From the NCBI GenBank assembly GCA_010093705.1, contig MU006103.1, positions 593,121 to 657,120 on the forward strand: a stretch of 64,000 nucleotides of DNA, read 5' to 3'. The first letter of the stretch is position 1, and the number at the start of each line of letters is the position of its first letter. The notes beneath the pieces are model-generated. The model was not told the origin of the DNA, made no database searches, and saw nothing but the letters and a program-made list of their open reading frames with translations. This document shows positions 18,601 through 51,448 of the stretch, one piece after another. The stretch comes from Patellaria atrata CBS 101060. Its lineage: Eukaryota. Position numbers and translations under genes: made by a program.

Positions 18601-18774
18601 TGTCATGGCTCAAACTCAGATGGAAGCTGAAAGGTATATTGCTAAATGTACATGAAGCTTAAACTTAAGGAAAGAAAGTGTTGAGACAGCCTATGCTGTT
18701 CTACTAAAGTACAGTATGACTAAGCTGTCGGATCATCTAAGGCACTTATACCTATCGGGTCTAACCCGTGGACA
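18601..18774. mobile_element. Solo LTR, copy 1
   Basis: Starts TGTCA and ends GACA. Flanked by the 5-bp direct repeat ACCCG (18596-18600 and 18775-18779). Clearly similar to 33704-33983 (shared gaagctgaaaggtatattgcta and aaggcacttatacctatcgggtctaacccgtg). Confidence 0.85.
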
Positions 18775-19692: not shown

Positions 19693-21259
19693 TTAGAATA
19701 CTTTGAACCCGCCTTTGACCTGGCGTTGGAAAACTCCATCCGGGTCGTATTTCCGTGCGACCTTCCGTAAAAATGCTTTGGAGGCTTGTCCATAGCCGTC
19801 AAAAATCTTCTGTTTACTTGCGGCGTAGTTGAGATACCGGAATCTCTCCTCCACATGCTCATCCGCAGCCGCATTATTTATCTCACGAATTAATTCGTAC
19901 GTCCTATCCTCCACAACTTTCGAATCAGCTTCCGAGTCCCAGTTGTGGGCGAGTAGGACTATAACGGAGTCGGCTTCGGGAACCGCGGCGTTTCCGAAAC
20001 CTAAACTATTTGCGAATGATTTTGGGGGAGGTGGAGTGGGCTGAATAATAAACGCGCTGTTCATTCCCGAAATACGAGAAAGCGTATCATTTACAGCAGC
20101 CTCCCAGAGTGTATAGGCTTTCTTCATTATGGTTGGGGAGATCCCAACCGACGTAGTCCCATACATAACTCTTTTCAAGTCAGCATAAACTTTACAGGAT
20201 GAAGGTTGAAGTTTTTCTTACGCCTTGTTCAACACCTGAAGGTCATCTATTTCCTGTGCGAAACTCGACATATTGGTAGTCCGAACCGTACTACTGATCT
20301 GTGGCTGAATCGATGTCCACCGCTGAAGACTGTTCGGGCTCTGGACTGACCCGGAGTGGAATGTATTGAGTAGAAGTGAGAAGGATTGATCTCCACCAAC
20401 ATAAGTATAGCTTAATTCAGCTAGCTCATCCGGGTCAAATGTTGATCTATTCATGTACTCGGTGAAAGCATCTAAAGTCGCGTCAAAAGCTTCCTTTGGA
20501 TAGAGAATCGCGCCCCCGAGAAACGGCGACTGCTCATGTGTCATTAGATCTATTCTAGTGACTACACCGAAATTGTTTTGGCCACCTTTCAAAGCCCTGA
20601 AGAGGTCTTTGTTGTGCGCTGCGTTCGCATCTACAATCTCTCCGGATGCGAGAACGACTTGGAAATTAACAACATTGTCACATCCCCATCCGCGCCTTCT
20701 TGAGAAAGCAGAAATTCCTCCTATTTTCTAGTGAGTATGAAAGCAGGGAATTGGTGTTAGATTAAGGCTACAGACCTCCTGTAATAAAGCCACCTGTTCC
20801 AACTGTACCACCTCGACCTCCTATTACAGATACTCCCACCTGATCGGTCACGGGATACACATCCCCCCATACTGCTCCACTTTGGACTCGAGCGATTTTC
20901 CAGTCTTTACTCAAAGCGATATCATTCATTGACCTAAGATCGATGGTGACTCCGTCGTCGATGTTTGAGAATCCATGATTAGGGGAATGGCCACCACTAC
21001 GGATTGCGAAGTGTGTTGACCTCTTCCTAGCTAGTGTCTTCACGGCGAGAGAGACATCTTTAGCCGATTCGGGGCGCAGTATACATGTAGGAGAGAGACG
21101 ACCTTGAAGGGGAAAATATGACGAGATAGACGCGTTATAAATCTCACTGGGTTCAAAAAAGACCTTCCCTGGCAACAATGCGTGCAATTGGTTACAATCA
21201 GCAGCTGAAAAGGGCAAATATCCAATTAGGATACCCAGCGCGAGACTGATCTTCTTCAT
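19693..21259 (-). CDS. Secreted FAD-linked oxidoreductase (BBE/VAO family); 3 exons
   Basis: Signal peptide MKKISLALGILIGYLPFSAA; RSGGH covalent-FAD His motif; IGGRGGTVGTGGFITGG; DLFRALKGGQNNFGVVTR; YLNYA; KYDPDGVFQ. Confidence 0.92.
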
Positions 21260-22240
21260 TGTGTGTAAGTTAAAGTGGAGGCCAGCAGACTGGAACGAGG
21301 AGGGAGTTCAGAACAACTCGAGCGTAGCAAAAGTTTGCTTATAGACCCCGTTGAGCTCTTAAAGAACTTACTTTCTATCATTGTGGCAAGGGCACGGCAA
21401 ACACCCACTTGAGCCACTTCTGTACCTGCATGCGCACCCAGAACTGTGCCGTTGTGGATGAGTGAAGAGATGGACATACCTTCTTGGGTTCAAAATTACG
21501 TACTTAGGTAAGCTCAAGTGCTTAAGACATTTCTTTGTTAGGAATTAACTGGTGTAGCAAGCGATAGGGCGCTGTCTTGGCCACAGTAGCTCGGCTGACA
21601 ATACCTTACCTTACAGTACGCCGGGTTACACGTCCAAGTACTCCGGGCCATCAATACCGCACGTACATCGCCTCTGCTCCATATATGCGGATCATACATC
21701 GACTGAATACAATCCCACCAACTTAACCTGCGAAGTCACCGAATCATCTCTGTGAACTTTCGTGTCGGGGCAGACGAGATGGAAAGACTTGTTGTCAAAC
21801 ACCCACACAAATCAATCTGACGCGGTGTTGTCTTTACATAAGTCACCGGAGGGTAGCGTGATCCACCCTCTGGCTCCTTTCAAGGATGTTCTTAAGATCG
21901 ATAGCAATTGACGTAATGATTTCTATAGTAGTTGAAAATTACATTCCGACCACTCTCCTTTACCCCTTGGGCAAGTTGCGACAATTTGGTGTACAGGATT
22001 CATTCCATGGTCTCGTTGGATGGTCCTCGAGTAGAGAGTAGATACGAACACCTCGAGGAGGGGATGCAAATACAAAGCGTTCAAAGCTCCTTTCAATACT
22101 TGTGCAAGGGCTATGAAGACTTCTTTGAAGTCACCTGGACCAAAATCAGATGCAAGCCTCGACTATGGTTAAGGTTGATGATTTATTTACGAAGTTCTGA
22201 CTTAATATCTATCAAACTCTATTCGCCGTCAATCCTATCC

Positions 22241-23454
22241 TTAGTCCTGACCGATCGGTTTAGCAGCTCTCTGCCATGCAATTTGAGCCGAACCTGCCGT
22301 CAGGGGCGGTGTCACGCCCGTTTCCTTCGGATCATTGCCGATGAAGTTTAGAGGAAAACCCGAATCAAATGGTTTGACAGCTTCCAGTCGTTCGATCTGT
22401 TGGAGCGACAAGCGGATGCTGAGCGCGTTGATGTTATCAAGAAGGTGCTCAACCTTACGGCCTCCCACGAGTGGAAACACATTACGAGCCTTTGCCATGA
22501 CATATGCGATGGCGACAGCGGTAGGAGTTGCTCCAACCTCATTACCAACCTCTTCGAGAGCTTCAGAAATTCTGACCTGTTCTTCGCTTTGCTCCGGGCC
22601 GAAGAGTTTACGGAGAGTTTCGCCATTTTCTTGCCTCTTCTCAATCTCCTTCCTACTCTGAAATTTGCCTCCTCCAACGACATCCCATGGACAGAGAGCC
22701 ATTCCAAACTGACGAGCCATGGGAATGATATCGCGCTCAAAGTCCCGCGCGAGCAAGTTCCATCGTCCCTGGTAAACGGAGAAGGGAGTTTTCCCGTGAG
22801 CCTTGGCATAGATGTTTGCTGCGCTCACCACCCACGCCGGTGTGTCGGAGGCACCAAGGTAAAGTACCTTCCCTTGCTCTACTAATAAATGCAGACTGTC
22901 CATAACTTCCTCGATCGACGTGGTCCAATCCCACCAATGTATGTAGAGGAGATCGATGTAGTCAGTCTTCAGCTTCTTCAAACTATCGCGTACGCTCAAG
23001 TGTAAGCTCTTCCTGGAATTACCGCTGTAGTTTACCGTCTTCCCCTTGCCGAGTTCGTGCGCGCGGTAGTTTGCCGTATACTTTGTCGCGATGAACATGA
23101 GGTCTCGGTTGCCACGCTCTCGCATCCAGTCTCCAATCCAAGTCTCGGACTCCTCGTTCTGATAATTATTGGACGAGTCGATGAAATTGCCGCCGGCAGC
23201 GTGGTAGTGGTCGAACAGTTTGAATGCCGCTTCCTTGTCCATGCTACGTCACGCTTTCAGTTTCCCCTCTGGTCTCGCGGGATAGATTGGGGCTCGAGAA
23301 GAACTTACCTTCCCATCAATCCCTCCCATGCCTTCCCAATCGACATGGCGCCGATTGCCAGTGGGGAGACTCGTACACCTGCAGTCGAAGAGAGGATACG
23401 ATAACGACCGAGCTCCGTAGGAGGCTCCGGTGCGGGTGTGAACACTTCTGACAT
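22241..23454 (-). CDS. Aldo-keto reductase, aryl-alcohol dehydrogenase / norsolorinic-acid-reductase-like
   Basis: [32 protein letters not shown], one intron, then [45 protein letters not shown]. Confidence 0.93.
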
Positions 23455-24547
23455 GGTGGACGAAATTTTAAGGTGACTGACAGTGATAGAAACTTGGTCT
23501 CGACTTATGAAAAAGGTAAAGTATCGGTAGAACTGGTGAAAGGATACAAACCAACCTTAGGTGTGCATCATGACTGACCATATTATTATCCCATCTAGAA
23601 TTGTCGCCTCTGCGTAAACTGGAACTACGGTGCAATTGCGCCCGTATGGTAACCTTATCGCGCAGGATTACCCCGTTCTAAGGATTATCATCTTGTACTG
23701 TACGCAGGTCCGTACCGAAAAGGTGTTTGCATTCTGGACGATGTCAAATTTCGGGTGGCGGTGGCTAGCCGATCGTGCACCGAAGTTTTGGGCTCTCCAG
23801 CTCCACATTGCCCCTAAGTTTGGGTACTCCGGTCCCAACTGAACTGGCGTAGTGCGCATGCCATCACGCAACCGGAATATCCGCGCACTTTGACATCTTT
23901 ATTTTATTTTCTATTTGGATCAGTTTGAAGTACAACTTTTGACAACGGGCGATTGAGGTTTAAGCACTCGACAGACGTCCTATTACTTTTATTTCATTGT
24001 TGTTGTGATCATTGGGAGAATTAGAGCTAAATTTGCCAAGAGTTCGTCTATTTACTTTTCTCCTACCTAGTTTTACCCCTTTCCCCTTCTCTCTCTGAAG
24101 TAAATATCATTAATTTAAAGCATTCTTACAGTCTCTTCTTGTGCCCAAAACTTCTCATCATCAGCATCTTCTCCCGCTGCTTAATATGTTGTTTTTCACC
24201 GTTCTTTTGCAATGGAGCATTGTAGGGATCATGGGCTTAAAACATATTCCCTTGCATTTCTTGACTATCTATCTATACTGTACAAAGTACTCCATATGAC
24301 GCAAACCAGTGAAACCATGCTTGCACCCACTATTGCTGATAAATCCTCACAGCTTTGCTGCAGTAGTACAAATACTGCTGTCCGTAGAGCTACTCGAGGC
24401 CCGTTTTTACTTTTCGCCATTGAGGTGGCACGGGGTGCTCTTGGCCTTGACCAGCTTACACTTTATCGCACCCGCTGTTGTTGGACTATTGTTTTGAATA
24501 TCAAACTGTCAAGTAACTTGTCTCACCTTCATAGCAACTGAACGATA

Positions 24548-26558
24548 ATGGAGCCCTCTCAAGAAAAGGTTCTTGAAGCACATCAGGCGGATAATGGAAG
24601 CGCAGGACATCTGACTTCACCAGAAGATGGCCATCCTCGCGAGAAAGAAACACGAGAAGTCACCGGACCGAAGGTGGGTGTCATTTTCTCTGACAACTCA
24701 GTAGGAATTTCGCGAATTGCTAATCATGTTCGCAGTGGTTTATCTTCGTGACTGCTACTTTCACTGCCATGTTTTTATACTCGCTCGACAACACTATCGT
24801 CGCAAATATCCAACCTGTAAGTCGTCACGGATGCATGTCCATACCCATCCCGTTTTATTTATGCTGATCCGTATTAGACGATCGTAAACAATTTCAACGC
24901 TGTCGATGAACTGCCATGGCTTTCTGTAGGGTTCGTTCGGAAGAATCCATTTATCAGTTTAGGACACTCACTAACTTTTGTTTTCTTGACCTAAAGCTTC
25001 ATGGTCGGTGGTCTCGCCATGGTCATGCCATTGGGCAAACTTTATTCTCTCTTTAACGGGAAATGGCTTTTCGTTATGTTCGTCGTTCAGTTCATGGCTG
25101 CCTCCGCTCTATGTGGTGGTGCGCCTAACATGACCGCAGAGATTATTGGCCGTACATGGGCAGGTGCTAGTGGTAATGGTATTTACTACGGTGTGATACA
25201 TCTCGTCTCAACAATTACTCTACCGAGGGAACGTCCAGCTTATCTCAGCTTGAAGTAAGGGAAACATCCATCTCTCTCGTCCTCCCACTAACCAATCCCC
25301 ACATTACAGTGGTCTCGTTTGGGGTATGGGAGCAATTCTAGGGCCCATCGTCGGTGGATCACTCGAGTTGGTCTCGTGGCGCTGGGCATTCTACATCAAT
25401 CTCTTCTTTGCGATTCCCCTCTTTCCGGCGTACATATTTACGATCCCTTCAAGCCAGCCGGCCCCTCATCTCTCGATCAAGCAAAAACTTGTAACTTTTG
25501 ACTGGATTGGGGCCTTGTTAAGCACTGGTAGTCTCTTAACGTTCATCGTCGCCACCAACTTTGGCGGACTAGAGTATAGATGGAACAGCGGTCCCATCAT
25601 CGCGTTGTATGCTGTAAGCGGAGTCCTGTTCCTCACATTCGCAATTCAGCAAACTTTTACTATCTTTACTACCCCCGACTCTCGCATGTTTCCAGTGCAT
25701 CTTTTACGCAACAGGGAAGTTGTCCTACTGTTCATCATACACGCATGTGGTGGTACGATTAGTTATGTCCCCGTCTATTTCGTCCCCCTTTACTTTCAAT
25801 TTACAAGAGGAGATACAGCCGTTGAGACTGCAGCTCGCTTCCTTCCATTCGTTTTTCTACTGATTTTTGGAATATTGTTGAATGGATATCTTATGTCAAG
25901 AGTTGGATATTACAAACCATGGTTCGTCTTTGGGTCAGTCCTTTGCGTTGTCGCCGGTGTTCTCTTCAGTAAGTTCTCTCTGTTCACTCCAATCATTCAA
26001 TCTAGATAAACTAACATGACGTGAAACTTCAAGGTAGGATCGAGCTTACAACCTCGAATCCTGCTATTTACGGCTATGAAGCTCTTCTCGGTCTTGGAGC
26101 CGGCTGCTTTGTCGCTGCAGCTTTCGCTGTTGTTCAAGCGAATGTCGACTTGAAAGACCTCGGATATGCAATTACCCTTATGACAGTTGCTCAAATTGGC
26201 GGTATCGCTTTCGGCTTGTCAATGTCAGGAGCGACTTTCCTAAATATTGCCATACAAAATCTTGCTGGTGTATTTCCCGATGAGACTCGAGAGACTCTCG
26301 TTGACGTCGTTTCGGGTACCAGTGGAGACTTTTTGCAGACCCTCAGTGACCAGAAGGCAACGGAAGCACTAGATGCGATTGTTAGAGCAATCCAAGTTCC
26401 CTTTATACAAGTTTACGCTGCCTCAGCTCTGACTGTCATTTTAAGTCTTGCTCTGAAAGTAAGTAAAATCCTTCATAACCAGAAATCATTCAACAAATTG
26501 CTGACATGTAGCGACATAGTGGAAAAAGGCTTACAACGCTATCCCTATTACCGGTTGA
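24548..26558 (+). CDS. MFS drug:H+ antiporter (14-TMS, secondary-metabolite efflux type); multi-exon
   Basis: LYSLDNTIVANIQP, ASALCGGAPNM..IIGR, LGPIVGG..SWRWAFYINL, YFVPLYFQF, GYYKPW. Last exon ends at TGA 26556-26558. Confidence 0.92.
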
Positions 26559-27500
26559 GACTACTAGATGTTACAATTTTGGTATACGAAATGCCACGAA
26601 CGGTAGATATATTCTCATTTTCCAACTAGTGCGAGCAAAGGAATGAGAATGGTTTAGCAGAGAAAATGATAAAAATTCTAACCCGCATGACTAATATTCA
26701 ACCAGTGTTTGCATGGCTAAATATCTTGAGTCGTACCTCACGAAGCCGTCAGTCATCGGTGAAAATAGTAGGAAAATTATTTCTATTCTAGAATATGCTC
26801 TTTATGTAACTGCCCACTTTCCTGTTCGTTGAGTTACTTGTTCAGATGAACATGTTTGCCCGATACAAGAAAGGATGTGAGCTTTGTTTTGACGGGTCGA
26901 TAAGGTGCTCTGGCCATCATTTAGATCCAATATCATCAGGTATAATCTTGTGTAGATGTTTCCTTAGTTTCGTTTTAAAACGTATGATTTTCGTCTATTG
27001 TATTTTAATGTTACATTCCAAAATCTAAATTCTCAGAACTCTCCAGGTTTTTTTGAGATAGACCGCAATACGACAAACACTCACTACGTCAAACCCTAAA
27101 TTCAAACTATAAACCCTTAAAGAATATGAAGGATAATACGGTAGACATTATTCTACTTCTATCAAAGTATTAGAGAAATATTACGTCCCACTAATTCTGA
27201 CACCCCATAGTGGATCTTCTATTTGCTCTCCATAGCCTCAAATCAGAGCGATTATAACTCTATTACTTGTCTTCGTTAGATTTCTTACTCCATTCCTTCG
27301 TCACATACCTGGAAGCTTCTATTCTACAAAAAATTCATTCATACAAAGTGATACAAAACTCCGGTCCTGAACGCGGTGTTACACCGTGAAATACCTTACA
27401 CAAGCAATTCAGAGAGCGCCTTTCTGCAGACATAAGCACTTATCTCCTGGGAGCAACACCTTTACATTGGTTTATACGAGCCTTGATTTATCTCTACACG

Positions 27501-28860
27501 ATGAAACTCACACCCGAATGGCAAGCTTTAGAGGTGAAATGGGGGCAGCGACCCAGCTTAAGCGGTACCGTTGAGGACTTTCGTACTGGATATGATCAAC
27601 TCAGTTTAGCTCTTGAGGCGCAGGAGAACACACCAGCGGATCCCTCTGTTCACGTCAGTAAGTCGCCGATGAAAAACACATCTCGTTCTTACATTTTCTA
27701 ATCACAAACGTAGGGGACGAGGTTCTACCAAGCGGCTTGACAATACGTATCTACGTGCCCGAGGAAGTTCACGAAAGAGGCCAAAAGCTACCTATCGGGG
27801 TATAGTAAGTGAAATATACAATACGTTGACCAATCAGTCTTCTAACTTCCGCTTTCAACTATCCAGTGCACACGCTGGGGGGTTTACCTGTGGTAGCCTT
27901 GATAATTACGGCGAAGATCGTGAGCCTATGTCCCGAGAAGATTTGAACGTTACCAACATAGGCATCTATAGGTCTTTGTCGCTATCTAGTACAGCATGCA
28001 CCATGTGTGCTCGCCTCCGTGGATTATCGACTCGCCCCTGAGCATCCAGTTCCGACACAGCTTCACGATTATCTAGAAGGATATGACTGGGTGAGTAGCC
28101 AGATATTGTCATATATCTTCCCCCAAGCATAAATTTCATCTCGCTGAGTGTATATACCTAGGTATGGGAACATGCGGAATCACTCGGCGGATCCAAGGAG
28201 ACCGTCTTCGCCATTGGCACATCCTGCGGTGGCGGACTCGCTCTCGGTGTCGCGCTGAAATACCTCGAATACGGCACCATGGCGGAGCGAGTCAAGGGGA
28301 TCATTTCCCTCGCTCCAACTACAATCCACCCCCATCACGTTCCGGAAGGGTTTAAGAGACACATTAAGTCGTGGGAGGAGAATAGAGATGCGCCCATTCT
28401 GAACTACGATTCCTACATCAACTTCACAGGTGCTGTTTCCCTGCGAACTTTGAGCATACTGAAACTAAAGATGGTAGAATAATACAGTAATCAACGGCAC
28501 GATAAACGAAAAGAAAAATCCGGACGTGCATCCGGCGCTTCACCGCCGGCTTGGAGAACTACCTCCCACCTACATCGTTACGTGTGGGGCGGACTTGGTT
28601 AGGGACGATGGCACGATCGTCAAAGCCGTCTTGGATCATGCAGGGTATGCTCTCCCTTTCCCTTATTTCTTGAAGGAAACAATATCCAGTGCTAATGATA
28701 ACGTCTCCGGGGGGATAGGGTACCTTGCAAACAAGACAATTACGAAGCTCTACCGCACTTGTTTTGGCTGTATCCCGAGATTCCGGAAGGTGCTGTGTTC
28801 AAAGCAAATACTGCTGCGGCGGTGAACTGGATTATGAAGGCGGGAAGTGTGAGACAATAA
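27501..28860 (+). CDS. Alpha/beta hydrolase (HSL / Abhydrolase_3 family esterase); multi-exon
   Basis: Spliced model gives YAHAGGF (oxyanion hole), VDYRLAPEHP, nucleophile G-T-S-C-G-G, LPPTYIVTCGADLVRDD and YEALPHLFW. Confidence 0.88.
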
Positions 28861-31157
28861 TGGAAGTGATTTCATAGAAGTAGAGAGGGGTCCCCTGGAG
28901 GGGTGTTTCAATTATCTCCTTTATTATCTCAGGGAGTCACGAATTCATGTGAAAAATAGAGTACTGGTAAAGCTTTCGCCAATAACCCTTAGAATTAGTA
29001 CTATAACCCCTTTTCCAGGAAACCTAGACGATACAGTCTTACTTTACTCTAACCTAATCCTCGTATCAAACCCAACATCTATGAACGTTCAAGTTGCCAC
29101 CAATTTCGATCCCGGAACTCGTCATATAAAACCCGCTACCCACATTCCCTCCCGGGTACCGCTCAAAAAATTCCAACAAGCGGTTTAGTAAATGGTTTAA
29201 GGAAGACTAGTCACCGTAACTTAACTGATAGAGGTCTTAATCTACCTTTCCTATAATTCACTCTACAAAACATACAGCACCTCCAAACGCTATTATGTAG
29301 AGAGTAACAATAGTGATTGTCTTAGCGTATAATTTAGATGGTATATAGATGGGAAAACAGATCAAAGTATGTTTACACATTCCACACTCATAAAAACCTA
29401 TAAACCAGCATTTGGGAGTGGCCTAGTTGTCTACATGTTTCTCGATATATATATGATTTCAGCTTTTAATACCTGATAAAACCGAGATTTAATTCCTATC
29501 CCGGGATCAATTTACAGTAATCACTTCCCCCTTTCCCTACTACTCGTACAAAAATGGCCGAGTTACACTTGGAGAAAGTGTACACCTTATCAATCACTTC
29601 GAATAATTTCTGGCCGGTGGCTGAATTGTTGTTCAAAGCTTGAATGGAGAAAGCTAAAATTGAGATACGAGAAGAGTAGGATAGACATATCCATTCGTCT
29701 CCATTATCTTAGATCTTGGCCTCTCAGCTATCTCCAGCCTCTAGATCTATACCAACCATGCGTTAAGTATCAATTCCAATACAAGGTACCGGTAACCTTA
29801 TCGATCCTTACACCGTTGTGTGGGGGTGGGGGGCTCTGGAGTTGGTTTACTTCTCCCGATGTAGGATGCCTATCATCGACGAATCTAGTGCAGCATTTCT
29901 AATCCCATGTCCCGTTTACTATTGCTTTTCCATCTTCCCGTTTGGTACCACTACCTTACCAACAACGAAGTCACTCACCATGGAGGATGCAGTTCTAGGC
30001 AATTCACGAACGCATACACATGCAGCGCTGTCGATGTAGTATTTGCTGAGGGTCCGCCATGCCAGATGCAGGGAACTTCAAATGTCATCCCGAGATTCCC
30101 CTATTGCCGGGCAATCCCCATGGCCGAGAAACATAAGTGAGTCTAATGAGTGTCCGCCACACCCATGGGGAACGAACTACGGTGGTAAACCATCCTCCCC
30201 ACAACTTTATTTCAACGTATGAAGCACTATGGTAAGGCTAAAGCATGCTAAAAAGTAACTGTGGGTGTAACAAACCTGATTGGGAAGGTGAAAGAAACAG
30301 ATCTTTCCTGTGGCGTCTGGTATTACCCACCTGCGTCATCTCACCCTAACGTCCCTCTAATATCATTCTTTCTTACCGTAAATCTTGTTTTCTCTTGTCG
30401 CTCAGGCTCGATTGTCACACAATCACCACGCCCGATCTGAATGAGATCTAAGGGACCGCTCTGTCCCAAACTTGAATTATGATACCGTTCTTACACACTT
30501 GCACGCTTCAGGATTCGGTGTAGTCCCGAAAGCTGGAGGGAGAAAGGAACGCATGTAGCAAATAATGGCGAAAGAGTCGAAAGTTGTCCGTTGGCATGCA
30601 CGACATGTCTCGGCAGACGAAGAATATGGCCCCGAGAACCGAGGAATGCGACCCCAGATGTCACAGCACGCAGGGATAGGTATGGAAATATACCTTTATC
30701 TACACCTGGCCACGAAAAAAGCTCGGCACCCCGAGTTAATGCAATTTTGCTGACTTTGCTTTCCATTTTCCCTGTATACCTTGTCCTTCCTAATAATGCT
30801 TGATAGAGGCTTGTCGCTGCCCTTTGTCTATCACCATTGCTAGCATGCATTGGTACAGTACATGCTTCAAATATCTTGGTCATGTTCCGCCGAATGTAGC
30901 ATTTAAGCGGACGAAGTCCAGTGGCGAGTTGCCTCCTCCGCATTCTAGACATATCATAGGCCTAGACGTAAGGCAGGGGGTTTCAATATACAAAAGTAGT
31001 TGCACTTGGATACTCGTGAACATTGTATCTGTTCTCATACCTACATACGACGTAGTAGAAACCAAAACACTGCGTTGTTCCTCAGTTCAAAATAAAGATT
31101 GTGGAATTTTCTTATTTCGAAATCGAAAAGAAATTGTGTTTGTTGTGTACTACAAAT

Positions 31158-37639: not shown

Positions 37640-37952
37640 GACAGCGCTTTGTTATTCAGACCGTAGTTTACTACCTGTATTTATCTATACTTTTCATGCA
37701 ATGTCCATCGCATGTGGAAGCGCCACCAGTGCGAGCTGCGAAACTCCGGTCCTTCGCGGCACTCCGCCCTATGGAATCGACTCAAGGAGAATAAGATGTA
37801 AACTGAACTCGGTCGGAACCCTGGGTCATTTCCCCGAGATTGACATTTGAAATAAAAAAAAGGGCGATAAAGCGTCGAGATCCCCATGATTGAAATTGTG
37901 ACCATGTGTTGATAGATAGCAGCACGTATCTTTGCACCTTAGACTGATTACC

Positions 37953-39744: not shown

Positions 39745-40484
39745 ACCACGAGCTGACTTTACTTTCTATTGCATTATTAACTTAGTACAACTTGAAATGA
39801 ATCAATGTCTCGATATCATGTTCAGCACGTAGCGTTTTTGGAAAGTTCTCGATGGTGATTCATATCAAAAAGACTAAATCTCTATTCTACTTTCATTGGT
39901 GATATCGCTATTCCCGTAACTGAGTATGGAACAAGGTTAATAATGCTGTTTTCCCACACACAATAAACACTTTCCTTTCCTGTCAGGTTTCTGGGACACC
40001 AACTTGGGATGCTGGTATCTCAGAGCCGAGTGAACCTTAGCGGGACCGGAGTGACTTCAGGTAGGGGTTGAGGATTCCTCCTCCTAACGGAATAATAATA
40101 CCGCACGCAAAAAACACGAGGACCATCAACCTTTGAGCGGTCGGGACAAAGTAAGCTACCCTAGATTGCTCAGTACATAGTATGGGTACGCAGAAGTCAA
40201 ACCGCAAGTGATAGTATCACCTTGTTAACCCATAGTTTCATCATTTACGGTGAGCTCTTCCGTTGTAGATGGGAATCCTAGTACCTAACGTGGAATTTGG
40301 AGTTGAAATTCAATACAGAACAAATCGTAGACTTGGACTCGTATTGCCCTAACGACTGAAACTTCATTCCAAATCGAAACAATTGTTATAATTTTCCCGA
40401 GAGTTATTCTATACTTCTAATCGAGTTCTCCTGAGTATGAAGTCCTATTTGATTCTGATTCTCACTTACCCATCATGAGCGAAT

Positions 40485-43400
40485 TCAATTTAGGAGAGAA
40501 TCTACGGCCAACCTGAGGCTGTCAGAGAGACTCTCTACCTATACATGATCGTTAGCCTCGCCTACTGATCTATTCACTTATAATCTCCACTTACATTGTC
40601 AGGTGCAAAGAGACTAAAGTGATTCCCCTTGATGGGATAAACGGGTATTGGCTTTTTGATCAGCTGTTCCCAATCCGCGACATCCTGCATGCGAAACTCT
40701 CTGTCGGAAACAAACGGATACTCAACCCCGTACAACACAAGCGTATCCACCAGCTCAACGCATTGAAGCATCACGCATTCGAATCGCGCTGAACTCGCAT
40801 TGGGCGTGTACTTCCCGAGCAGTCTAGCATTGCGTTTGAACTGAGCCTCCACACAAGACCTCAGCCTTTGCGTCTTCGGCGAACGAGCGGCGAATTTTGA
40901 CGAGATCTGCTCTATGATTGTATCGGGTAGTGGATCGTGTTTAAGGGGGCTTGGACTATCAATCAACATTACTCCTCGGGGAGATCTTCCCTGAGCGCGA
41001 AGCTGGCGAGACACCTCATAGGCCAGAACGCCGCCAAAAGACCACCCTGGTTTAATTTTAGCTGTATTCTCTCTAAGATTTGCAGTTGGATGGCTTACCA
41101 CCGAGAATAAAATCCTCCGCATCCATGAGCTTCGCACGTGCAATGCACTTTGTTGCAAGTTGCTCCAAAGATTGAATCTGATTGTCCATATTGTCGAAAT
41201 CGACGCTTGAAATACCAATGACACTGCAAGGGAGCTTTGAAATACGTGAATAGATGTTAGACATGCCGCTTCCATCATGGAAAAGATAAAGAACAGTCTG
41301 GGAATGCTCGTTTCCCTGTAGTAAGGTAACGCATCGTGGTTCGTTGGGACTTGAATCCACATCATTCTCTTGGATCTTGAGAGGTTCTGTTAGTTCTATG
41401 GAGCAGTCCAAAAGTTGTGTAGTATCCATACTGTGACTTTCAACGAAACCTTCGTCAATGGGATGTGTAGAGTTTGATACCGAGACGTTGCCAATAATGA
41501 GTTTCTCTAGTTCTTCAATCGATATGGTGGAGATTATATTGTCGTTCGTATTGATATCTATACCGAATATCTCACGTAGCCCATGTTCAATTTCGATAGA
41601 AAGGAGAGAATCCACGCCTAAGGAATCAAGTGTGCAACGTTTGTCAACACCCGTAATTGAAAATCCGCAGGTCTTTTCGATGAAGATACGTAGATCCTCA
41701 ACTCTAGGTCCTATATCTAAAGTGTTTGAAATCGTTGGCTTTCTAAATTCAGAGGGTGTTCGAGATGATGGAGCTGAAGTAAGCATGGAGTCGAGCTCGG
41801 GAGTCACCATGCCGCTTTTTGATCCGCTCTCGATAGAAGATTGGATAAGCTTGCATATGTCCATAACAGTAGTGCAGCTCTCTAGCATTTTGGTTGTATC
41901 CCCAAGTGTAGGATACTCCTCTTCGAGTTTATGTGCGATCTCAATGAATAAGAGCGAGTCAATACCCAGGTATTCCAGTTTAGTATTCTGACCGACCGTG
42001 CCATCTAATTGGCACAACTCAGATAGAATATTCGATAGGGCGTGGAAAACCTCTCCTTGGGGTTGTTTTGAGATTTCGGCTAGTCTGGGAGCGTCAGATC
42101 CGTACTGGTTATTGTCTTTGAGATTTGGGCTTCGGGCTTTGTCAGACCCCTTCACTTTGGTTGTTCCGTTCGTTTTGACAATCCCATCTGTTTCGACGGC
42201 TTTGATAGGTTTGATTGCTCCGTTGGTTCTGGTGTTCCGATGCGAGTGCTGAATGTTTGTTCTTGATGTATTGTGATTTGTCGACTCAATCGTACGGGCA
42301 AGTTGTGTTTGGAAGCCTTTTAAGCTCAAAATTTTGAAATGCATTCCTCGTACCGCGACGCGGACGTTATTCGTTGAATCGAGTGCGTACGCATCCGCTA
42401 TCAAATGACCTTTTACGGCGTCAATCAAGCTACAGTACAATGTCAACTCTTGAGTGGGAAAAGAGCTTCCACGGGGAACAATCGCTTCTTCGACGCGTAC
42501 GCAAATGCAAGCTTCAGCTGCGCTGACTTTGAGGTTGGCAATGAAACCTGCAGCGTGAAGAAGTGTGTCTACGAGCGGAGGTGGACTATTGAAGATTTCC
42601 TGTTCCAACATGGGCAATTTGAAATGTCCAAACCCCTCCAGCCCAGATGCGGCAATGCGTAGTTGCTTGATCGTCAAGAAAGGATCCGAATACTGGACTA
42701 CGCGAGGAAATATAACGTCATATATCACCCTTGAGGAGAGAGACTCGACAAACTCCACGGATTTGAGTTGCCTATTAATCACGGACGACTGTCGAAGGAA
42801 CATTGTTGCAATATCCTCAGCTCGAGCCTGACCTAAGATACCCGTGCAGTGAAGATCCCCAGTACCGGAAGTGACGTTAAACGTCCCAGTCATTAGATTG
42901 TTCGTCGTAAAAACAAGCATGTGGCTGCCCTCTTGGTAAATCAAAGGCTTGTTAAACACAATGTCTTTGAAAACATTGAATGTTCCTGTAAAGTTTTGGG
43001 TTTCCAGGTCATTCGCCTGAGCTGCTAATTCCATGTACACGGAAGCCGGACATATCGGGACACCACCGACCGCATGTGATTTGATATAATCAGCCAGGGA
43101 AGAAACGGTAGTGTCGAATGTTCGTGTCCCGTCGGGTTGCGATACGCACGAACCCCTGAGAAAAGAGAAAGGAGAGAAAAACTTCCCAGTTCCCCTTGGC
43201 TCATCTCGCTCAGGAGATAGATTGTTACTCCTTGGTTCTTGGTATGGAATAATGAATGTTGACGGCGATAAGGGGTAGTGAGGTAATTCTCCCAGGAATT
43301 GTAGGTCAGCTCCGCGGAATACTTCTGTCCATCGGATTTGTTGTCGATGAGTATATAGACTGCTTAAAGTAGCATTGATTGTGACCCAAGGCTCTTCGGA

Positions 43401-46400
43401 CGGTCTCAGGGAAGGCAAAGCATTCGAAGCCTTATGGTTCAATGTCGCTTTCACCATGGGTAGTGCTATTGTTTCATCAGCAGTTGGAGACATTCTTGGG
43501 TTTACACCACTTACTTTTTGGCGCCGGTCCAATCTCCAGAAATAAAAGTTCTTTCTCGGCCGCAAACTCTTCCACAGTTTTCAAAGCTGCAACGAAGTCA
43601 ACTTTCTCTCTTGCATGTTTAACGAAGTTGGGAGGTTGGAGATCATCTTGTGTCAGAATTCTCCCAAGTGTGCTTGAAGCGATCGTAAATTCAGGGGCAT
43701 GAGTAGTGATCGTTGATGCAAGCTCATAGAACGGCTCCAGGATAGGATCCAGTGCGCTAGAGTGAAATCCATATGTGACATCCAGTTGCTTAGTCTTTAT
43801 CCCCATTGGCTTATTTTGGTATGCGAATTGCGACAGTGAACTCTTTGGTCCTGCAAGGACACAGTCCTCTGGGCTATTTATGCATGCAATACTAAGTTCT
43901 GGGTATAGTTCACTGTTCCTGGATAGAACTGACTCTAGCTTGGTGGATGACAGATGGCATGCCATCATACCAGACGATCCAGGTTCGCAGAGGTCATACA
44001 TCAGCTCTGCGCGCTTTGCAACAAGGAATAGCGCATCGCGGAGGGAGATTGCACCAGCGACAGCCAGCATAGCGTATTCACCAAGACTGTCAATAACTAT
44101 AGTAAGCTCTTGTTCCGTAAATATTAGAAATAGTACGCTCACCTGTGTCCAACAGCTATATCTGGATTTACACCAAATGACATCCACAATTTGGCGAGGG
44201 CGTATTCCACTACAAAACAAGCGCATTGAGCGGTAACAGTTTTCTCAGCCAGAATTGGGTCATCTAATACATGCTCATTCTTAAGCATGCACGGCTCAGT
44301 CTTAGAATACCCGAGGTTTTCTAGTATTTCATCGCAAGTTCGGACTGCCTTTTGAAATACTGGAGCAGTTTCAAGAAGCTCTGAAGCCATTCCTTGGTAG
44401 ATACCTCCTTGACCGGAGAAGACGAATACTACAACCTTTTTCTTTGATCCATAGAAAGTGTCAGGGGTTTTGACTTTCTTAAGCTTGTCCAGAGCGCTTT
44501 CTACACTGTCTGCGACAATCGAAAGGCGGATATCATCATACTCAATTCTTCTAGCACTGGCGGAGTAGGCTAAATCTCCGAAAAATAGATCCTTAGAAGC
44601 AAATGCAAAGTCGTGATAGCTCTGAGATAACCTTTGAAAAGCGTCGACTGTCTTTGCAGAGATGTTTAAAAGGTAACTTGATCTGACAGTTGGGAAACGC
44701 CTTTTCATAGGCCGGATGGGCTCCTCCAAGATAAGGGCTGCATTTGATCCAGCAGCGCCAAAATTGTTCAAGAGTGCTCGTCGAGGACTCTGGGGCTGGG
44801 CTCTCCATGCGGTGAGTTCCCTTGGAATTACAATATTATACGTAGATAAATCTCCAAGCCGAGGATTCAGGGTTTCATGTGCAGCTTGAGGGGGGATCTG
44901 TTGCTCACGCATCATTAAAACCAGCTTTGCAAGTCCAGCTGCTCCAGAAGCTGCCTCCGCATGGCCTATATTACCCTTGATAGAGGATACATAGAGCGGG
45001 TTACTGGGCTTTCGACTCCATCCAAAAGATGACTTTATGCTGTTGATCTCTGCGTGGTCACCTGCTTGAGTCCCTTATGATTGTTAGTTACAATTGAATT
45101 ACGTTGCTTCAAAGTTGACTTACCGGTACCGTGCGCCTCTACTACGCTGATTGAGTCCGGAACAACTCCGTGTCGGTTGAATAATCTCTGAAAGAGTTTT
45201 GCTTGAGTAGTTGAATCGGGATATGTAATTGATTTAGAAGTCCCACATTGATTAACTTCAATTCCTCGAATGATACCGTGTATTCGATCTCCTTCCGCTA
45301 TCGCATCACAGGCGCGTTTCAAGACAAATACACCGCATCCTTCAGCTCGACAATATCCATCAGCGGACGCATCAAATGGCTTGCACTGCCCTGAACTATT
45401 GAGGAAATGTGCTCGAGAAAGACCAATGTGCATCTGCTCTGTTCAGTTTTGGGCTCGAACTTTAAGTCGGTTTGCACTTACATCTGGACTCGATATTACA
45501 TTGACCCCCCCTGCTAACGCTGCTGTGCAATCTTTTGCTTGAAGTGACCGACAAGCTTGATACAATGCTATCATCGAGGAAGAACAAGCAGTATCGACTA
45601 CCACAGATGGACCTTCAAATCCGAACGCATATGAAATTCTTCCGCTAAGAAATGCCCGAAGGGTTCCTGTGCTGTAATAAACATCAATATTATCACGCGT
45701 ATTGTCCACGTAGTCCCCAGTAGCCACTCCTACGTAAACACCGAATGAGTCTCTCTGGAATGTTGGGGTGGCATCCGGTGAATAACCAGCATCTTCCAAT
45801 GCATCCAAAGCCGTATGTAGGAGGTTCCTTTGTTGAGGGTCCATCGACTTTGCCTCACGAGGTGAGATCCGAAAGAAGCCGTTGTCAAAATCAAAAGGAT
45901 TAGCCATAAAATTTCCATACTTTGATTTTGTGGTTCTTGAACCATCCCCTTTTTGGCTGTCGGGTTGATAGTAATCCTGTATGTTGAAACGTGATGATGG
46001 AATCTGTATGCTGTCATTTTATTGTTAGGTCGTGTTCATGGAAGAATAATATACCTCTGAAACTACGTTTAGACCCTCCCTGATTGTATTCCAAAATTGC
46101 GATTTCCCATTTCCAACAGGATATTTGATTCCCATGCCAATTATAGCAATATCATCCGGTGAAACTAACCTCTCAGAAACAGAAGTGCTGCTTAGAACGG
46201 TGAGACGTGGGTGCACAGTTGATTTCATGTTAAAAAGTAGAGATTTGGCATTCGGTTCGATGGCAATAATTCGATATGCGGAAGAGGTGTCACTACTTAG
46301 AATATTCTTTGCCTTTTGAAGCAGTGATATGGATACCATCTGCCACTCGACTTGTTTCATGAACATCGCGCTTAAAATAGCTTCCAATAGTGATGTCTTA

Positions 46401-47346
46401 ATCGTATCGAAGAGCATATACTCTCCGTCAAGTGTTGATCTAATGGGCATTGCCAGATCTTCCCAGCATGGGAATTTGATGTTTCGTCGACGAACATCCT
46501 CGATAATCTTTGTTCGGGTAATCCTTGAGACCTTATTGCCACCGTGATAATACCCATGCACATTTCCGGACCTTGTAGTTACAGACTTTGGAAGATATTC
46601 GACTTTAAAGTGGTGTAGAGAGGGTCCTTGTCCACTCAGTGACAATGTCCTATCCGCTAAAACGGAAGCGATACATATAGGGAATTCAGGTTTCTGAACA
46701 GTAATTAGTGATATGAAATAGAAAATGTGAGTAGGAATACTACCTCAGTTTGATTATATCTTTTCAGTACTTCATTCATCTCCTCCAAACCTAATCCTGA
46801 AACAACCAGAGACCAGGGAAGGTCATTGGGGTTGTTATGACCCTGAGTCCTACTATTCTGGGCAACTCTTATACCTATCCAGAAGACCAGACGGAACCCT
46901 TCAACAGCCCAACCGTGCAACTTTCCGTCCAAGAGTGCAGGGGATGCTGCTACCATAACTGCAGGTATAAGTCCGGAGCAAAGACCACTTACTTCATCGA
47001 TAGTCCTATTCTGCTCATGTTGAGTACTGTTGTATCGCAAGTACTCTAACATCTGTTGAATATATAGGGCAGTGTTCTGGATGATCGGGTTTGATGAAAA
47101 AGATTTTGAAGGGATCGCTAAGGAAAGAGGAGTCGTAAACGCGGAAAATATATCTTCCCCTAAGAGTAATTTCTCATCATCTTGAAGGCTTTGGATTTCC
47201 AAAACGAACGCATCGAAACATGCTGAAAGGATGGTCTTCGCTTGTACCGATGAAGATATGAACTGATGAAGATCTTCTGATAGGCCTTGTGTGAAGAGAG
47301 AGGGTGAGCCCTGTCCAGCAAAAAGAATTGCGTCTCGTACTAACAT
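40485..47346 (-). CDS. Non-reducing iterative type I PKS, SAT-KS-AT-PT-ACP-ACP-TE (orsellinic-acid-synthase-like); multi-exon
   Basis: SAT FAGQG and GLCSG; KS DTACSSS, EAHGTG and [21 protein letters not shown] and [17 protein letters not shown] and DTLLHAAG; two ACPs ([10 protein letters not shown]); TE FHDGSG, G|WSFGG and GNHF. No KR, ER or C-MeT motifs seen. Confidence 0.95.
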
Positions 47347-48134
47347 CGTGATGGAATGTTGAATTCTGTGTGAAAGAGAATTTGTTTTGAGTCAATATGA
47401 GAGAAAAAATTCCTCCTAATGGGTATATCAGCCCAGTTTCGAACGTTACGGCGAGAGAAACCAATTGCTCCGGGTAATACGGCGTGTAAAACCATATACT
47501 CTAAAATATAGCGTTTGGTGATTATGGATGAAAATGATTTTCGCAACCAATGAGTTTCATAACAATCCAGCATTGAGGTATTACAAAGTTTCAAAGTCTT
47601 ATTAATGTCTATGGTAGTTAGTTCTAATCATCCGAAAAAGATTTCTCTAATACAGTACGATAAGTGGAATAGAACACTTCATATCTGCTGATACACTTGT
47701 CCAGTTCTTAATATTTTAAGATTTGTCACTGGAAGGTCTAGAGACTTAGTGAATACTAGTATATTACGGTATGGAAATGTTAGGGATCGAATTACAGTGG
47801 AAATTGATAAGTATCTATAGAATTAGAAAAGTAAGTTAAGTAACAACAACTATCCGAATCGGGTAGTCTTAAATGCTTGGCTGGGGAGAAGGTAGTGCCA
47901 AGCATCTGGACCGGAGTACTTCAAACATCAATGACTCCGGTTACGCCACCTTCGTAATCCCATAGACCATCTATTACGGAAGGAAATCAACGAGACATAC
48001 GTCGGTAGATGGATAGCGCGATCAATTTTTCTTTCAGCAATTTTTGAGCCTTAGATACGAATCTTCCATCAAGTCATTCCGATTGCTTTCGCTCTCCTTA
48101 GTCTTTTTACCTCAGACACGTACTATTCTATACA

Positions 48135-51100
48135 ATGACTGTACCTCATTTGGAAGACTTTATTCGACCTTCTATTCTCCTTACGGAAACAGATAGGGAC
48201 GAAACAGTACGCTCAATCATTGATCTTATTCAGTTCAATGCTACCAAAAATCCGCATCATTGCTTTTGCTTGCAAGCTGAAGAGAAAACTGAGGATGGAA
48301 GCTTATATGCAAAGGAATCCTCTTGGAATGTCCGACAAATCACCTTTAAAGATCTTTATCTATCTCTGAAAGCTTGTGTTTCCTGGTTAAAGGCTTCTGG
48401 CATTGGCAATAGTAAAGCATCTTCCTCTAAGAACCAATCACCAGTAGCTGTATATATTGAGAGTGACGTATCCCTTTTCATCTACGTAGTAGCATTGACT
48501 GCATTGAACTGTTCAGTAAGCTTGAACTTTCATACTTATGAAGTAATCTTAATGCTGAACCCTCCTAGGTCGTTCTATTATCTGCAAGATTGAGCTCGGA
48601 GAGTATCAGTCACCTACTCAGAGAAACTGATACAAGGCATCTCTTGGTTTCGAAGAGAACCCATCATGTCGTTAAATCATCGGCCCTGAATGACATCAAT
48701 GTCACAGTTGTTGTGGGATACTCTCACTTCATGTCAGATCTCAATCGTGATGCAGAAGAAGACACTGATGCTTTCTGGAGAGGAGGTAGAGATTTTGATG
48801 AGAATGATAACAAAGTATTGATTCTCCATTCATCGGGTACTACGGGTCTGCCAAAACCAATCAGACAGGGTCATCGATATCTCTTGGGTTACGCTGCTTG
48901 CCACGATTTCCCAGTGGATGCCCCTCCGATATGGCCTAATCTTTCAACTCTTCCCTTATATCATGGATTTGGAATGCTAGCACCTTGCCTCAGCCTGTCA
49001 GTTGGGATGCCCTGTTGTTTTCCTCCTGCTACAATCATTCCTGGAGCACAATCTACTTTAAAGTTGCTGTCCCTTTTTGAAGCACAGTCACTCATGTCTG
49101 TACCGAGCATAATGGAAGACATCCTTAATATAGAATCGAAAGAGCGTGGTGAAGCATTGTCCATCCTGGCAAAGTTAAAATTTGTGGCGATCGGTGGTGG
49201 TCCGTTGCCACATAGTGTTGGAGAAGAACTCTCACACGCATCTGTGAATGTCCTAGCTCATTATGGAGTAACTGAAATTGGAGCACTGGCGCCAATCTTT
49301 GTCCCTGGTCCAGACTACGATTGGAGATATATTCGGTTACGTAATGATCTCAACCTCCAACTCCGTCCAGTTGAACCCCTTCCGCTCGCTTCGAGTGTTG
49401 AAAGATTCAAACTAGTTGGACTACCGTTCGGCTGGGGAAAAGAGTATGAGATTCAGGATGAGATTGAAAGGAGACCATCCCAACCCAACAAGAACATTGA
49501 TATTAAGGTGATGGGTAGGCGAGACGATATCATCGTTCTACAAACTGGTGAGAAGATTTCCCCAAAACTTATAGAAGACGCACTGGTTCTCGATCCTTTC
49601 GTCAAATCGGCTATCTGCCTCGGGGATGGTTGTTTCGAACTATTAATTCTTATCGAGCCTTCATCTTCTGTAACTTTTGACGACGACTCCTTAAGGAAAC
49701 ACGTGTGGGGTTTGCTTACTCGGATCAACCCAGCTCTCGACAGTCACGCTAGAATCTCTTGTAAGGAAGCGATCATTATTAAATCACATAGAAAAATTAT
49801 TCCCCGGTCTGATAAAGGTTCTGTAATGCGAAGAGAAGTTCACAAATTGTTTGAAACAGATATTAAGAATGCGCAGCGAAAGGTCGAGACAACGTCATAT
49901 GAAGAGGGACTGTTCGGCAACCCATCAGAAATCAACGAAGCAGTAAAGAGAGCAGTATGCTCCATTTTGAGTGACAAGCTACAAATCGACGAGCTGTCAA
50001 GTGAAGAAGATCTGTTCGAAAGAGGCATGGACTCGCTCCAGGCAACCCGGCTGGCACGCGCTCTATCGTCCATCTTCTCTTCACTCTCTCCTACTTCTAA
50101 AGCTCATATCACAAAGGAATTTGTGTATCAAAATTCCTCCGTCAACAAATTAGTCTCCGCTTATAAAGACTTAGCCCGAGCCCGGAAAGATATTAACAGA
50201 GAGCCTAAAAGCCGCCGAACCAGAATAAACGCCCTTGCAACCGAATATATGGATTCAATTCATCGGGATGAAGTTAACATACTCCTTACGGGCTCCAGTG
50301 GAAACCTTGGTGTTCAGTTACTCTCTCGGTTAGTAAAGAGCCAGAGGATTGATCGGGTGTACTGTCTTTGTCGTGGGGGCGATAGAGCGGTAGAAGAATA
50401 CCAGGAACTCCTCCAGACCTCAATAAAGACGGCTGACGTCCTGATAGATCCATCGGGATGGGATAAAATTGAGATAATCGGAGTCAACATGCAAGCTCCT
50501 CGTTTGGGACTAACCTCCGAACAGTATACAAAGATCATAAACTCAATCACACACATCGTACATCTAGCATGGCCCATGGACTTCAACAGAAAGCTGGAGA
50601 GTTATAAGCCTCAATTAGATGCGTTACAGATGCTCATCAAACTAAGTTGCGATATCAATCAATCGCGGCCTAATACGAAGCCTCTGCTACTATTTGCATC
50701 ATCCATAGCTGTTACTAGGTATTATCATGAACTCACCGGTCGTCATGTCGTCCTAGAAAGATCCTTGAAAGATCCAACTGTTTCAGCATCCTTTGGTTAC
50801 GCAGAGGCCAAGTGGATATGTGAGCACATGCTTGAGAGAGCCTGGAAGACATTGAGACAAAGTTTCGATCCCGTCGTCATGCGGATCGGGCAACTGAGCG
50901 GACCAGAATCTTGCAGAGGGGTCTGGAAAACGGCAGAGCATGTCCCAGCGCTATTGAAGGCATCGCAACGAATCTCGGCATTCCCTGCTCTTGATGGGGT
51001 ATGTACCATAACATGAAGGTAACCGGGATGCTTGTATAGCTAATTATTCGACTAGGACTTCTCTTGGCTTCCCGTCGATCGTGCTGCAAGTTCTATATTC

Positions 51101-51448
51101 GAAGTTCTACTTCACAAAGCGACCCCCAAAACTCTTTACTACCATCTAGAGAATCCGATACGACAATCTTTCGCCGACCTAGGCACAATCGTCGTCAAAG
51201 AACTCAATCTAAAAGACGGGAAGATTCCTTTCGAAATATGGCTAACTAGGGTAACTGAAGTTATGGGAGACGCAAGCTTGATAGAGTTTTTTCGGAAGGA
51301 CTTTAGGTCTCTCGCGAATGGGGAAATAAAGCTGGACACGGGGAGGACGAGGGGGGTGTCGCGCTCCTTAAGAAGTGCGAATGGACTTGGAAAGGATCTG
51401 ATAACGGAATATATACAAAGGTGGCGCGAAATGGGGTTCCTCTCGTGA
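48135..51448 (+). CDS. NRPS-like carboxylic (aryl) acid reductase, A-T-R; 3 exons
   Basis: A domain HSSGTTGLPKP, LPLYHGFG, YGVTEIG, GRRDD..GEK, PRSDKG; T domain GMDSL; R domain LLTGSSGNLG, HLAWPMDF, GYAEAKW, RIGQLSG. Introns at about 48517-48568 and 50999-51054. Confidence 0.95.

Follow-up and report, generated by a model that had tools for sequence, protein, structure and literature searches.

A Myb-associated polyketide synthase and carboxylic acid reductase gene cluster of Patellaria atrata with a VibO-clade monooxygenase: a possible route to ring-opened orsellinates

A 64,000-nucleotide stretch of contig MU006103.1 of the saprobic fungus Patellaria atrata CBS 101060 (positions 593,121 to 657,120 of the forward strand; referred to below as the window, with coordinates counted from its first letter) contains, at 19693–51448, nine genes grouped around one polyketide synthase of the non-reducing type (NR-PKS), a carboxylic acid reductase (CAR), and a flavin monooxygenase (FMO). 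The reading that we favor, at slightly under an even chance, is that these genes constitute a Myb-controlled pathway that would build an orsellinate ring and then open it. This reading draws on the placement of the FMO in the clade of VibO, the arene ring-expanding enzyme of vibralactone biosynthesis, on the presence of a VibC-like esterase, on the occurrence of the same core genes in many other fungi, and on an 11-bp motif common to the promoters of the cluster.

Gene content and core enzymes

Each of the nine genes was spliced into a stop-free frame, with GT–AG borders in 40 of the 40 introns (46–87 nt). The genes were assigned as follows:

19693–21259, minus strand: FAD-linked oxidase (FAD_binding_4, berberine bridge enzyme (BBE)-like), 486 aa; hydrophobic N-terminus, RSGGH motif; accessory gene
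22241–23454, minus strand: aldo-keto reductase (AKR), 382 aa; Pfam match; accessory gene
24548–26558, plus strand: major facilitator superfamily (MFS) efflux transporter, 546 aa; Pfam match
27501–28860, plus strand: esterase (EST), an Abhydrolase_3 alpha/beta hydrolase, 328 aa; Ser-Asp-His triad
31158–32500, plus strand: Myb transcription factor, 350 aa; three Trp-spaced repeats, judged by eye
34786–37639, minus strand: group A flavin monooxygenase FMO (FAD_binding_3 and Phe_hydrox_dim), 842 aa; VibO clade; accession KAF2836622.1
37953–39744, plus strand: O-methyltransferase (OMT), 517 aa; DVGGG and HDW motifs
40485–47346, minus strand: NR-PKS with the domains SAT-KS-AT-PT-ACP-ACP-TE, 2149 aa; domains and catalytic motifs
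48135–51448, plus strand: A-T-R (adenylation–thiolation–reduction) CAR, 1067 aa; Pfam match and catalytic motifs

The order and orientation of the genes were thus BBE(−), AKR(−), MFS(+), EST(+), MYB(+), FMO(−), OMT(+), PKS(−), and CAR(+), with AKR/MFS, FMO/OMT, and PKS/CAR as divergent pairs. Each gene class was backed by Pfam, that of the oxidase by FAD_binding_4 only, its BBE label resting on a weak Atlas lead (Atlas labels hold at the family level only). The initial annotation of this DNA had described nine co-located genes with intact catalytic motifs and three divergent pairs; the stop-free models, Pfam classes, and motifs were all recovered, and the pairs were confirmed by coordinates and strands. 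It had also stated that the window has no prenyltransferase, halogenase, or P450, and none was found among the 65 window open reading frames (ORFs) scanned against Pfam (53 + 12; a subset of ORFs, from which short exons could escape). A GMC oxidase of the Vbs1 type and a P450 of the Cyp4 type were found neither in the scanned window ORFs nor in the scanned gap ORFs of related loci, and tblastx revealed no conserved small genes in the window gaps (the inter-locus output seen amounted to 40 lines from one locus pair). Two sequencing runs over 31100–51099 contained no joints; these runs are probably DNA contigs and have no bearing on expression.

The PKS contained the motifs GLCSG, DTACS, HGTGT, GNIGH, and GHSLG, the PT His/Asp pair, two ACP DSL serines, and the TE residues GWSFG/D/H, and a C-methyltransferase (C-MeT) domain was not found in it. 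The CAR contained SSGTTGLPK, GMDSL, TGSSGNLG, and YAEAK, and our model of it was identical to the public record P0128. An intact NR-PKS therefore adjoins an A-T-R reductase, as is typical of aryl-aldehyde clusters, and the earlier description of a Myb-containing NR-PKS and CAR cluster without C-MeT agrees with the intact SAT-KS-AT-PT-ACP-ACP-TE and A-T-R domains. In a quick ketosynthase (KS) tree, from which nine rows were dropped, the PKS grouped with Dothideomycete relatives (support 91), apart from basidiomycete enzymes and from the clade of Fusarium graminearum FGRA07_03003, which we take to be PKS14. The relatives of the PKS carry the automatic names orsellinic acid synthase or ArmB-like, and the PDB matches of both the PKS and the CAR were distant relatives only. 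Residue His358 of the CAR was invariant in 25 of 25 aligned rows and, by motif spacing and not by alignment, appears to be the specificity site that is Phe in StbB and AscB; at this site, His is reported for CARs acting on non-prenylated orsellinates. Judging from domains and relatives, the PKS probably forms orsellinic acid and the CAR orsellinaldehyde, which is the sequence of products proposed initially and is retained here at that grade.

The best PDB match of the FMO was VibO (7yj0), over the whole length and with 526 bits vs. 232 bits for the next entry, and in a Foldseek search with the predicted model (pLDDT 74.5) VibO also ranked first (40% identity, TM 0.78/0.87). An alignment read by eye against the VibO paper gave identity at six of the seven VibO pocket residues (D99, L155, F265, I279, Y289, and A366; A157 was replaced by Ile) and at four of the five FAD-binding side chains, and an N-terminal extension as in VibO was present. 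Of the 124 subfamily rows, 123 retained F265, 118 retained L155, and 112 retained A366, where a further 11 had a gap. None of the 14 rows from outside the subfamily had Phe in the F265 column, and 13 of them had Pro in the A363 column. In a quick tree, the FMO belonged to a 45-row clade (support 100) together with a close VibO relative, P0370 (1011 bits to VibO); this proxy lay outside the 42-row subclade (support 99) holding the window FMO. The tree roughly followed the fungal classes, with basidiomycete members outside ascomycete ones. VibO is reported to insert one oxygen atom from O2 into the ring of a 4-hydroxybenzyl alcohol to yield an oxepinone. Given the placement of the FMO in the VibO clade, ring expansion or cleavage by this enzyme would be at least as likely as ring hydroxylation.

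FMOs of the VibO clade were also found in Sparassis, Pleurotus, Botryobasidium, Grifola, Tilletia, and Ceraceosorus (P0343, P0350, P0359, P0368, P0369, and P0378). The window FMO contains, at 35400–35850 (minus strand), a 148-aa Asn/Gly-rich low-complexity stretch with a 69-nt internal repeat, which is present in our model only and omitted in the public one; the spacing across it was 194 aa in our model vs. a median of 69 and a maximum of 147 aa in 84 homologues.

As to the other tailoring enzymes, the best PDB match of the esterase was the vibralactone cyclase VibC, a weak match (E-value 2.9e-5 with one exon and 4.3e-8 with a three-exon profile), with the Ser/Asp/His catalytic residues in place. 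The C-terminal exon of the OMT matched GedA best (7wh9; E-value 1.5e-81 vs. 1.4e-27 for the next entry), an enzyme that acts on emodin in the geodin pathway. The AKR is a candidate for the aldehyde-to-alcohol step.

Occurrence in other fungi and the promoter motif

Genes for the PKS, CAR, and FMO were co-located across Pezizomycotina, often with Myb, MFS, OMT, and esterase genes. The protein matches listed comprised all 103 for the PKS, the best 120 of 523 for the CAR, and the best 120 of 145 for the FMO, and co-location on what appeared to be the same contig was used as a proxy only for linkage. By this measure, at least 27 of the best 53 PKS matches were accompanied by a CAR, at least 22 by an FMO, at least 15 by both, and at least 34 by either, and none of the PKS matches 54–103 was apparently co-located with a CAR or FMO among the matches listed. 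Adjacency was confirmed by the locus tags Hte_010076/77/78, RRF57_007192/93/94, S40288_00832/33, ACJ41O_009098/99, and VTH06DRAFT_5250/51. In Westerdykella, the CAR and FMO accessions stand beside a PKS model annotated as fused to a Myb protein, which is 38% identical over 345 aa to the window Myb.

A metagenome scan with the FMO as a query yielded 24 related loci in 13 groups, several of the loci being too short for neighbors to show. Homologues beside the FMO were found for the PKS in 14 of these 24 loci, the CAR in 12, the Myb gene in seven, the OMT and the MFS transporter in four each, and the esterase in two; oxidase and AKR homologues were found in none of the 24. One locus, L008, combined PKS, CAR, FMO, a short-chain dehydrogenase/reductase (SDR), esterase, MFS, and Myb genes and showed no OMT gene in the DNA fetched; in locus L003 a multicopper oxidase gene (5114–6720) lay upstream of the FMO, recalling aox1 of the Ustilago maydis cluster discussed below. 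The Pfam scan of the gap ORFs of the related loci (79 of 117 long and 89 of 129 short ORFs) gave only the multicopper oxidase, the SDR, and apparently unrelated genes. Thus, the core of the cluster is, as far as sequence comparison goes, old and widespread and forms a Pezizomycotina family. The gene set had initially been called unusual, which does not hold, as its core is ancient and widespread and five functional classes are the same in the mtf1 cluster of U. maydis. The statement that it matches no characterized cluster was upheld: none with the same gene set was found in the searched literature (most subscription journals lay outside this scope, and the evidence of absence is weak), nor was a characterization of the widespread cluster family found there.

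An 11-bp motif, TACTCCGGTCC, was found upstream of eight of the nine cluster genes and in orthologous promoters elsewhere; no copy was found in the promoter of the Myb gene. A k-mer scan revealed strong enrichment of TACTCCGGTCC in 24 promoter regions. When the window was excluded, it remained the highest-ranking 11-mer, with exact copies in 10 of the 19 regions, which came from five loci. The window contained seven sites with at most one mismatch vs. 0.69 expected, a number reached in none of 100 shuffles, and six of these were in the intergenic DNA of the cluster (9.4 kb), with one in the 32 kb outside it. The sites within the cluster were as follows:

21639–21649, plus strand: TACTCCGGGCC, one mismatch, 380 nt upstream of the oxidase gene
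23825–23835, plus strand: exact TACTCCGGTCC, AKR/MFS divergent promoter
27357–27367, plus strand: one mismatch, 144 nt upstream of the esterase gene
37742–37752, plus strand: one mismatch, FMO/OMT divergent promoter
40043–40053, minus strand: one mismatch, convergent OMT/PKS gap
47908–47918, minus strand: exact TACTCCGGTCC, PKS/CAR divergent promoter, with a second 8-nt core at 47934–47941

Among the related loci, the motif was absent from L007, L014, L015, L017, and L021, which form a related group and showed no Myb gene in the DNA fetched, as well as from the short loci L001 and L019; L012 had copies with one mismatch only, and L003 and L006 had the motif and no Myb gene in the fetched flank. 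The distribution of the motif across promoters supports a reading of eight genes as one putative regulon, including the oxidase and AKR genes, which synteny left unsupported, and TACTCCGGTCC is a candidate site to which the Myb protein may bind. The clustering exceeds chance because the same genes adjoin in many other fungi and have a promoter motif in common.

Two different fungi had a copy of the motif between convergent genes (at 40043–40053 of the window and at 9051 of L002), with no gene found there; in the window gap between the OMT and PKS genes, a hidden gene around the motif copy was sought by tblastx and not found.

Possible ring opening and its alternatives

The vibralactone route of Boreostereum vibrans (PMC10257657) leads from an acid through a CAR (BvCAR), an aldehyde reductase (BvAR), VibO, and VibC, the same order as in the pathway proposed below; the CAR, the aldehyde reductase, and VibO have counterparts in the window, and VibC has a possible one by its weak match to the esterase. 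However, this route starts from 4-hydroxybenzoate, depends on a UbiA prenyltransferase, and in the view of its authors is unlikely to be encoded by clustered genes (PMC10257657). In the window, by contrast, the genes surround a PKS in one cluster that also has an OMT and a Myb gene, and no prenyltransferase was found among the scanned ORFs. By gene content, compared by gene classes, the nearest characterized cluster is the mtf1 pigment cluster of U. maydis, comprising pks3, pks4, pks5, omt1, pmo1, cyp4, vbs1, and aox1 (bioRxiv 10.1101/2019.12.28.889758). There, Pks3/4 give orsellinic acid and Pks5 acts as the reductase, omt1 lies next to pmo1, and Mtf1 is related to Myb proteins. Both clusters have an orsellinic acid synthase, a CAR, an OMT beside a phenol-monooxygenase-type FMO, and a Myb regulator. 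The U. maydis cluster differs in its split PKS and in Cyp4 and Vbs1, which are needed for the pigment and neither of which was found in the window scans, and the accessible text names no esterase, MFS, or AKR among its genes. It is reportedly missing in 15 other genomes of Ustilaginaceae, with horizontal transfer as a possible origin. No U. maydis protein was present by name among the PKS, CAR, and FMO matches listed, and none of the 10 divergent FMO representatives was named as Ustilago; Tilletia and Ceraceosorus did contain related FMOs.

An NR-PKS feeding an A-T-R reductase to give an aryl aldehyde is also known from StbA/StbB, AscC/AscB, HerA/HerB, ATEG_03629/03630, CicB, and Esp4, and the first two steps of HerA/HerB, stb, and asc are common with the window cluster. 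The stb and asc clusters, chosen for comparison in the initial annotation, are not the best one, as Phe occupies the specificity site of their CARs, where the window CAR appears to have His358 (equivalence by motif spacing); the compounds that they make are prenylated. AtCAR, CicB, and Esp4 are reported to prefer a C-methylated acid, which the window PKS, having no C-MeT, cannot make.

In the proposed pathway, the PKS would release orsellinic acid, as its domains and relatives indicate, the CAR would reduce it to orsellinaldehyde, as in the characterized pairs, and the AKR may convert the latter to the benzyl alcohol. By analogy with VibO, the FMO would then place one oxygen atom between C5 and the phenol carbon C4 to form an oxepinone; the VibC-like hydrolase would open this lactone, and the resulting beta-keto acid would lose CO2. 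The alcohol branch would lead to C7H12O3, the formula of botryodiplodin, and the aldehyde branch to C7H10O3, a C7 1,4-dialdehyde that with ammonia would give C7H9NO (3-acetyl-4-methylpyrrole). If the GedA-like OMT methylated the 2-OH group first, decarboxylation would be blocked and C9H12O5 would result, which we take to be an astepyrone-type product. The oxidase may convert a lactol to a lactone, and the MFS transporter would export the product. The formula arithmetic gave C7H12O3 from the alcohol, C7H9NO from the aldehyde, and C9H12O5 from the 2-O-methyl aldehyde, and the first two are the reported formulas of botryodiplodin and 3-acetyl-4-methylpyrrole. In our own mapping, the methyl, acetyl, and lactol groups of botryodiplodin would be placed correctly with no further redox step.

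The known producers of these compounds were compared with the carriers of the genes. 3-Acetyl-4-methylpyrrole is reported from Podospora anserina, Eupenicillium hirayamae, and an astepyrone-making strain of Aspergillus terreus; P. anserina has the PKS (PODANS_4_40), and in P. comata the PKS, CAR, and FMO genes are apparently on one contig. In Macrophomina phaseolina, botryodiplodin was reported in 82% of 89 isolates and orsellinic acid in 49%; the CAR and FMO accessions of this species are 3–4 apart, and its FMO had the top score of the 14 proteins compared (68% identity). Lasiodiplodia theobromae is reported to make botryodiplodin and its lactones, and its CAR and FMO accessions are 2 apart. 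The gene content of L008 (SDR, no OMT in the fetched DNA) would be the set that the model needs for botryodiplodin. For Patellaria, the presence of the OMT, AKR, and oxidase genes suggests a methylated and/or lactonized member of the series.

A number of points weigh against ring opening. The derivation of botryodiplodin, astepyrone, and 3-acetyl-4-methylpyrrole from orsellinate belongs to general background and was found in none of the sources consulted. Carriers of the genes are common, the producers were picked after the idea had formed, and Macrophomina and Lasiodiplodia are close kin; moreover, no Macrophomina or Lasiodiplodia PKS was present among the 103 PKS matches, and the producers A. 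terreus, Penicillium roqueforti, and E. hirayamae were not among the PKS, CAR, and FMO matches listed. Two of the enzymes required were rare at the related loci (esterase in two of 24, AKR in none of 24), and botryodiplodin has no O-methyl group, so that the OMT would need a branch. The FMO is, by its sequence, a VibO-clade enzyme and not VibO itself, because D99, I279, and Y289 also occur in phenol hydroxylase and because the VibO relative branches early; at 40% identity and on an early branch, VibO is not its one-to-one orthologue. VibO is itself reported to yield a catechol as a side product, and the match to VibC may depend on no more than which fungal esterases of this broad family have solved structures. 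Deletion of pmo1 in U. maydis had no visible effect (bioRxiv 10.1101/2019.12.28.889758). The searched literature assigned no genes to botryodiplodin, astepyrone, or 3-acetyl-4-methylpyrrole, and the accessible part of a 2022 paper on M. phaseolina mentions botryodiplodin genes only as expected to exist.

Among the alternatives, the route of the initial annotation, in which the FMO hydroxylates the ring of orsellinaldehyde and O-methylation follows to give a polyoxygenated aryl aldehyde or alcohol with an intact ring, is unlikely but deserves to be taken seriously. Part of it stands: the FMO has a phenol-hydroxylase fold with the D/I/Y residues common to PHHY, hydroxylation is possible in view of the catechol formed by VibO, and the FMO/OMT divergent promoter is found here, in L002, and in L023. 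The assignment as a plain phenol hydroxylase by sequence does not, as sequence, fold, and tree put the enzyme with VibO; furthermore, hydroxylation leaves no role for the VibC-like hydrolase, and the OMT was present in only four of 24 related loci. We consider it quite improbable that the FMO performs a Dakin-type deformylation, with formate removed by the esterase and subsequent methylation and oxidation leading to methoxy-toluquinones or a melanin-like polymer. Such a route would recall the U. maydis cluster (PKS, CAR, omt1, pmo1, and Myb), which is reported to make a dark pigment via orsellinaldehyde, as well as the multicopper oxidase gene adjoining the FMO in L003 and the proposal of VibO as a Baeyer–Villiger enzyme. 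However, in U. maydis Cyp4 is essential, Vbs1 contributes, and pmo1 is dispensable, and neither a P450 nor a GMC oxidase was present in the scanned window ORFs or the related-locus gap ORFs.

Still less probable is a PKS product other than free orsellinic acid (e.g., triacetic acid lactone, a depside, or some longer chain), with a different downstream chemistry. The searched literature contains no characterized member of the PKS subclade, which the quick tree separated from basidiomycete enzymes and from those of the Fusarium graminearum type, and Pks3/4 of U. maydis are reported to release triacetic acid lactone as well; on the other side are the automatic names of the relatives (orsellinic acid synthase or ArmB-like), the partner CAR, which appears to have the His of CARs for non-prenylated orsellinates, and the orsellinic acid reported in M. 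phaseolina cultures. Least probable is ring expansion followed by cyclization by the VibC-like enzyme to a prenyl-free oxepinone or a vibralactone-like bicyclic beta-lactone. Among solved structures, VibO and VibC do match the FMO and esterase best, but the VibC match is weak, and in the accessible sources ring-opened C7 products are reported from carriers and no such metabolite was found.

Flanking DNA and biological meaning

The MBOAT and HET genes outside 19693–51448 were rejected as cluster members. An MBOAT_2 acyltransferase-like gene at 58458–59975 (plus strand) had no match in the related loci, no motif, and an in-frame stop (TAG at 58929–58931), and is probably a pseudogene. The tandem HET-domain genes at 9231–17905 (minus strand), two with a Pfam HET match and a third HET-like ORF set at 9231–11494 without a Pfam match, also had no match in the related loci, and the only motif-like site to the left of the cluster (13651) was inside a HET ORF. 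To the right of the CAR gene, two small apparent genes (52300–52800 and 54618–55300, both plus strand) had no Pfam match, and one had a signal-peptide-like start. By eye, the ORFs at 1094–2786 (plus strand) and 3477–6500 (minus strand) resemble those of a cation/proton antiporter and of a secreted beta-glucosidase of family 3, respectively.

A dispersed repeat of ~280 nt is present at 33701–33984, between the Myb and FMO genes, with a related copy at 18600–18770, to the left of the oxidase gene; the two copies thus flank the oxidase-to-Myb block on both sides. It is considered a high-copy genomic repeat because of its summed read depth of ~20,000 (vs. 320–460 in the flanks) and many different loose ends.

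Tentatively, and with somewhat less than an even chance, we propose that the cluster family as a whole is the genetic basis of ring-cleaved orsellinate metabolites, namely, botryodiplodin, 3-acetyl-4-methylpyrrole/desoxyverrucarin E, and astepyrone. It would represent a clustered, PKS-fed version of the vibralactone logic extending from truffles to lichens and plant pathogens, controlled by Myb via TACTCCGGTCC, with the accessory reductase, methyltransferase, and oxidase setting the product of each species. The conserved 11-bp motif offers a marker of where the cluster ends as well as a candidate site for Myb binding, and the cluster supplies named candidate genes in the producers. If the proposal is true, one pathway would explain several orphan metabolites, a function would be given to a Pezizomycotina-wide cluster family, and VibO-type arene ring expansion would be extended to polyketides.

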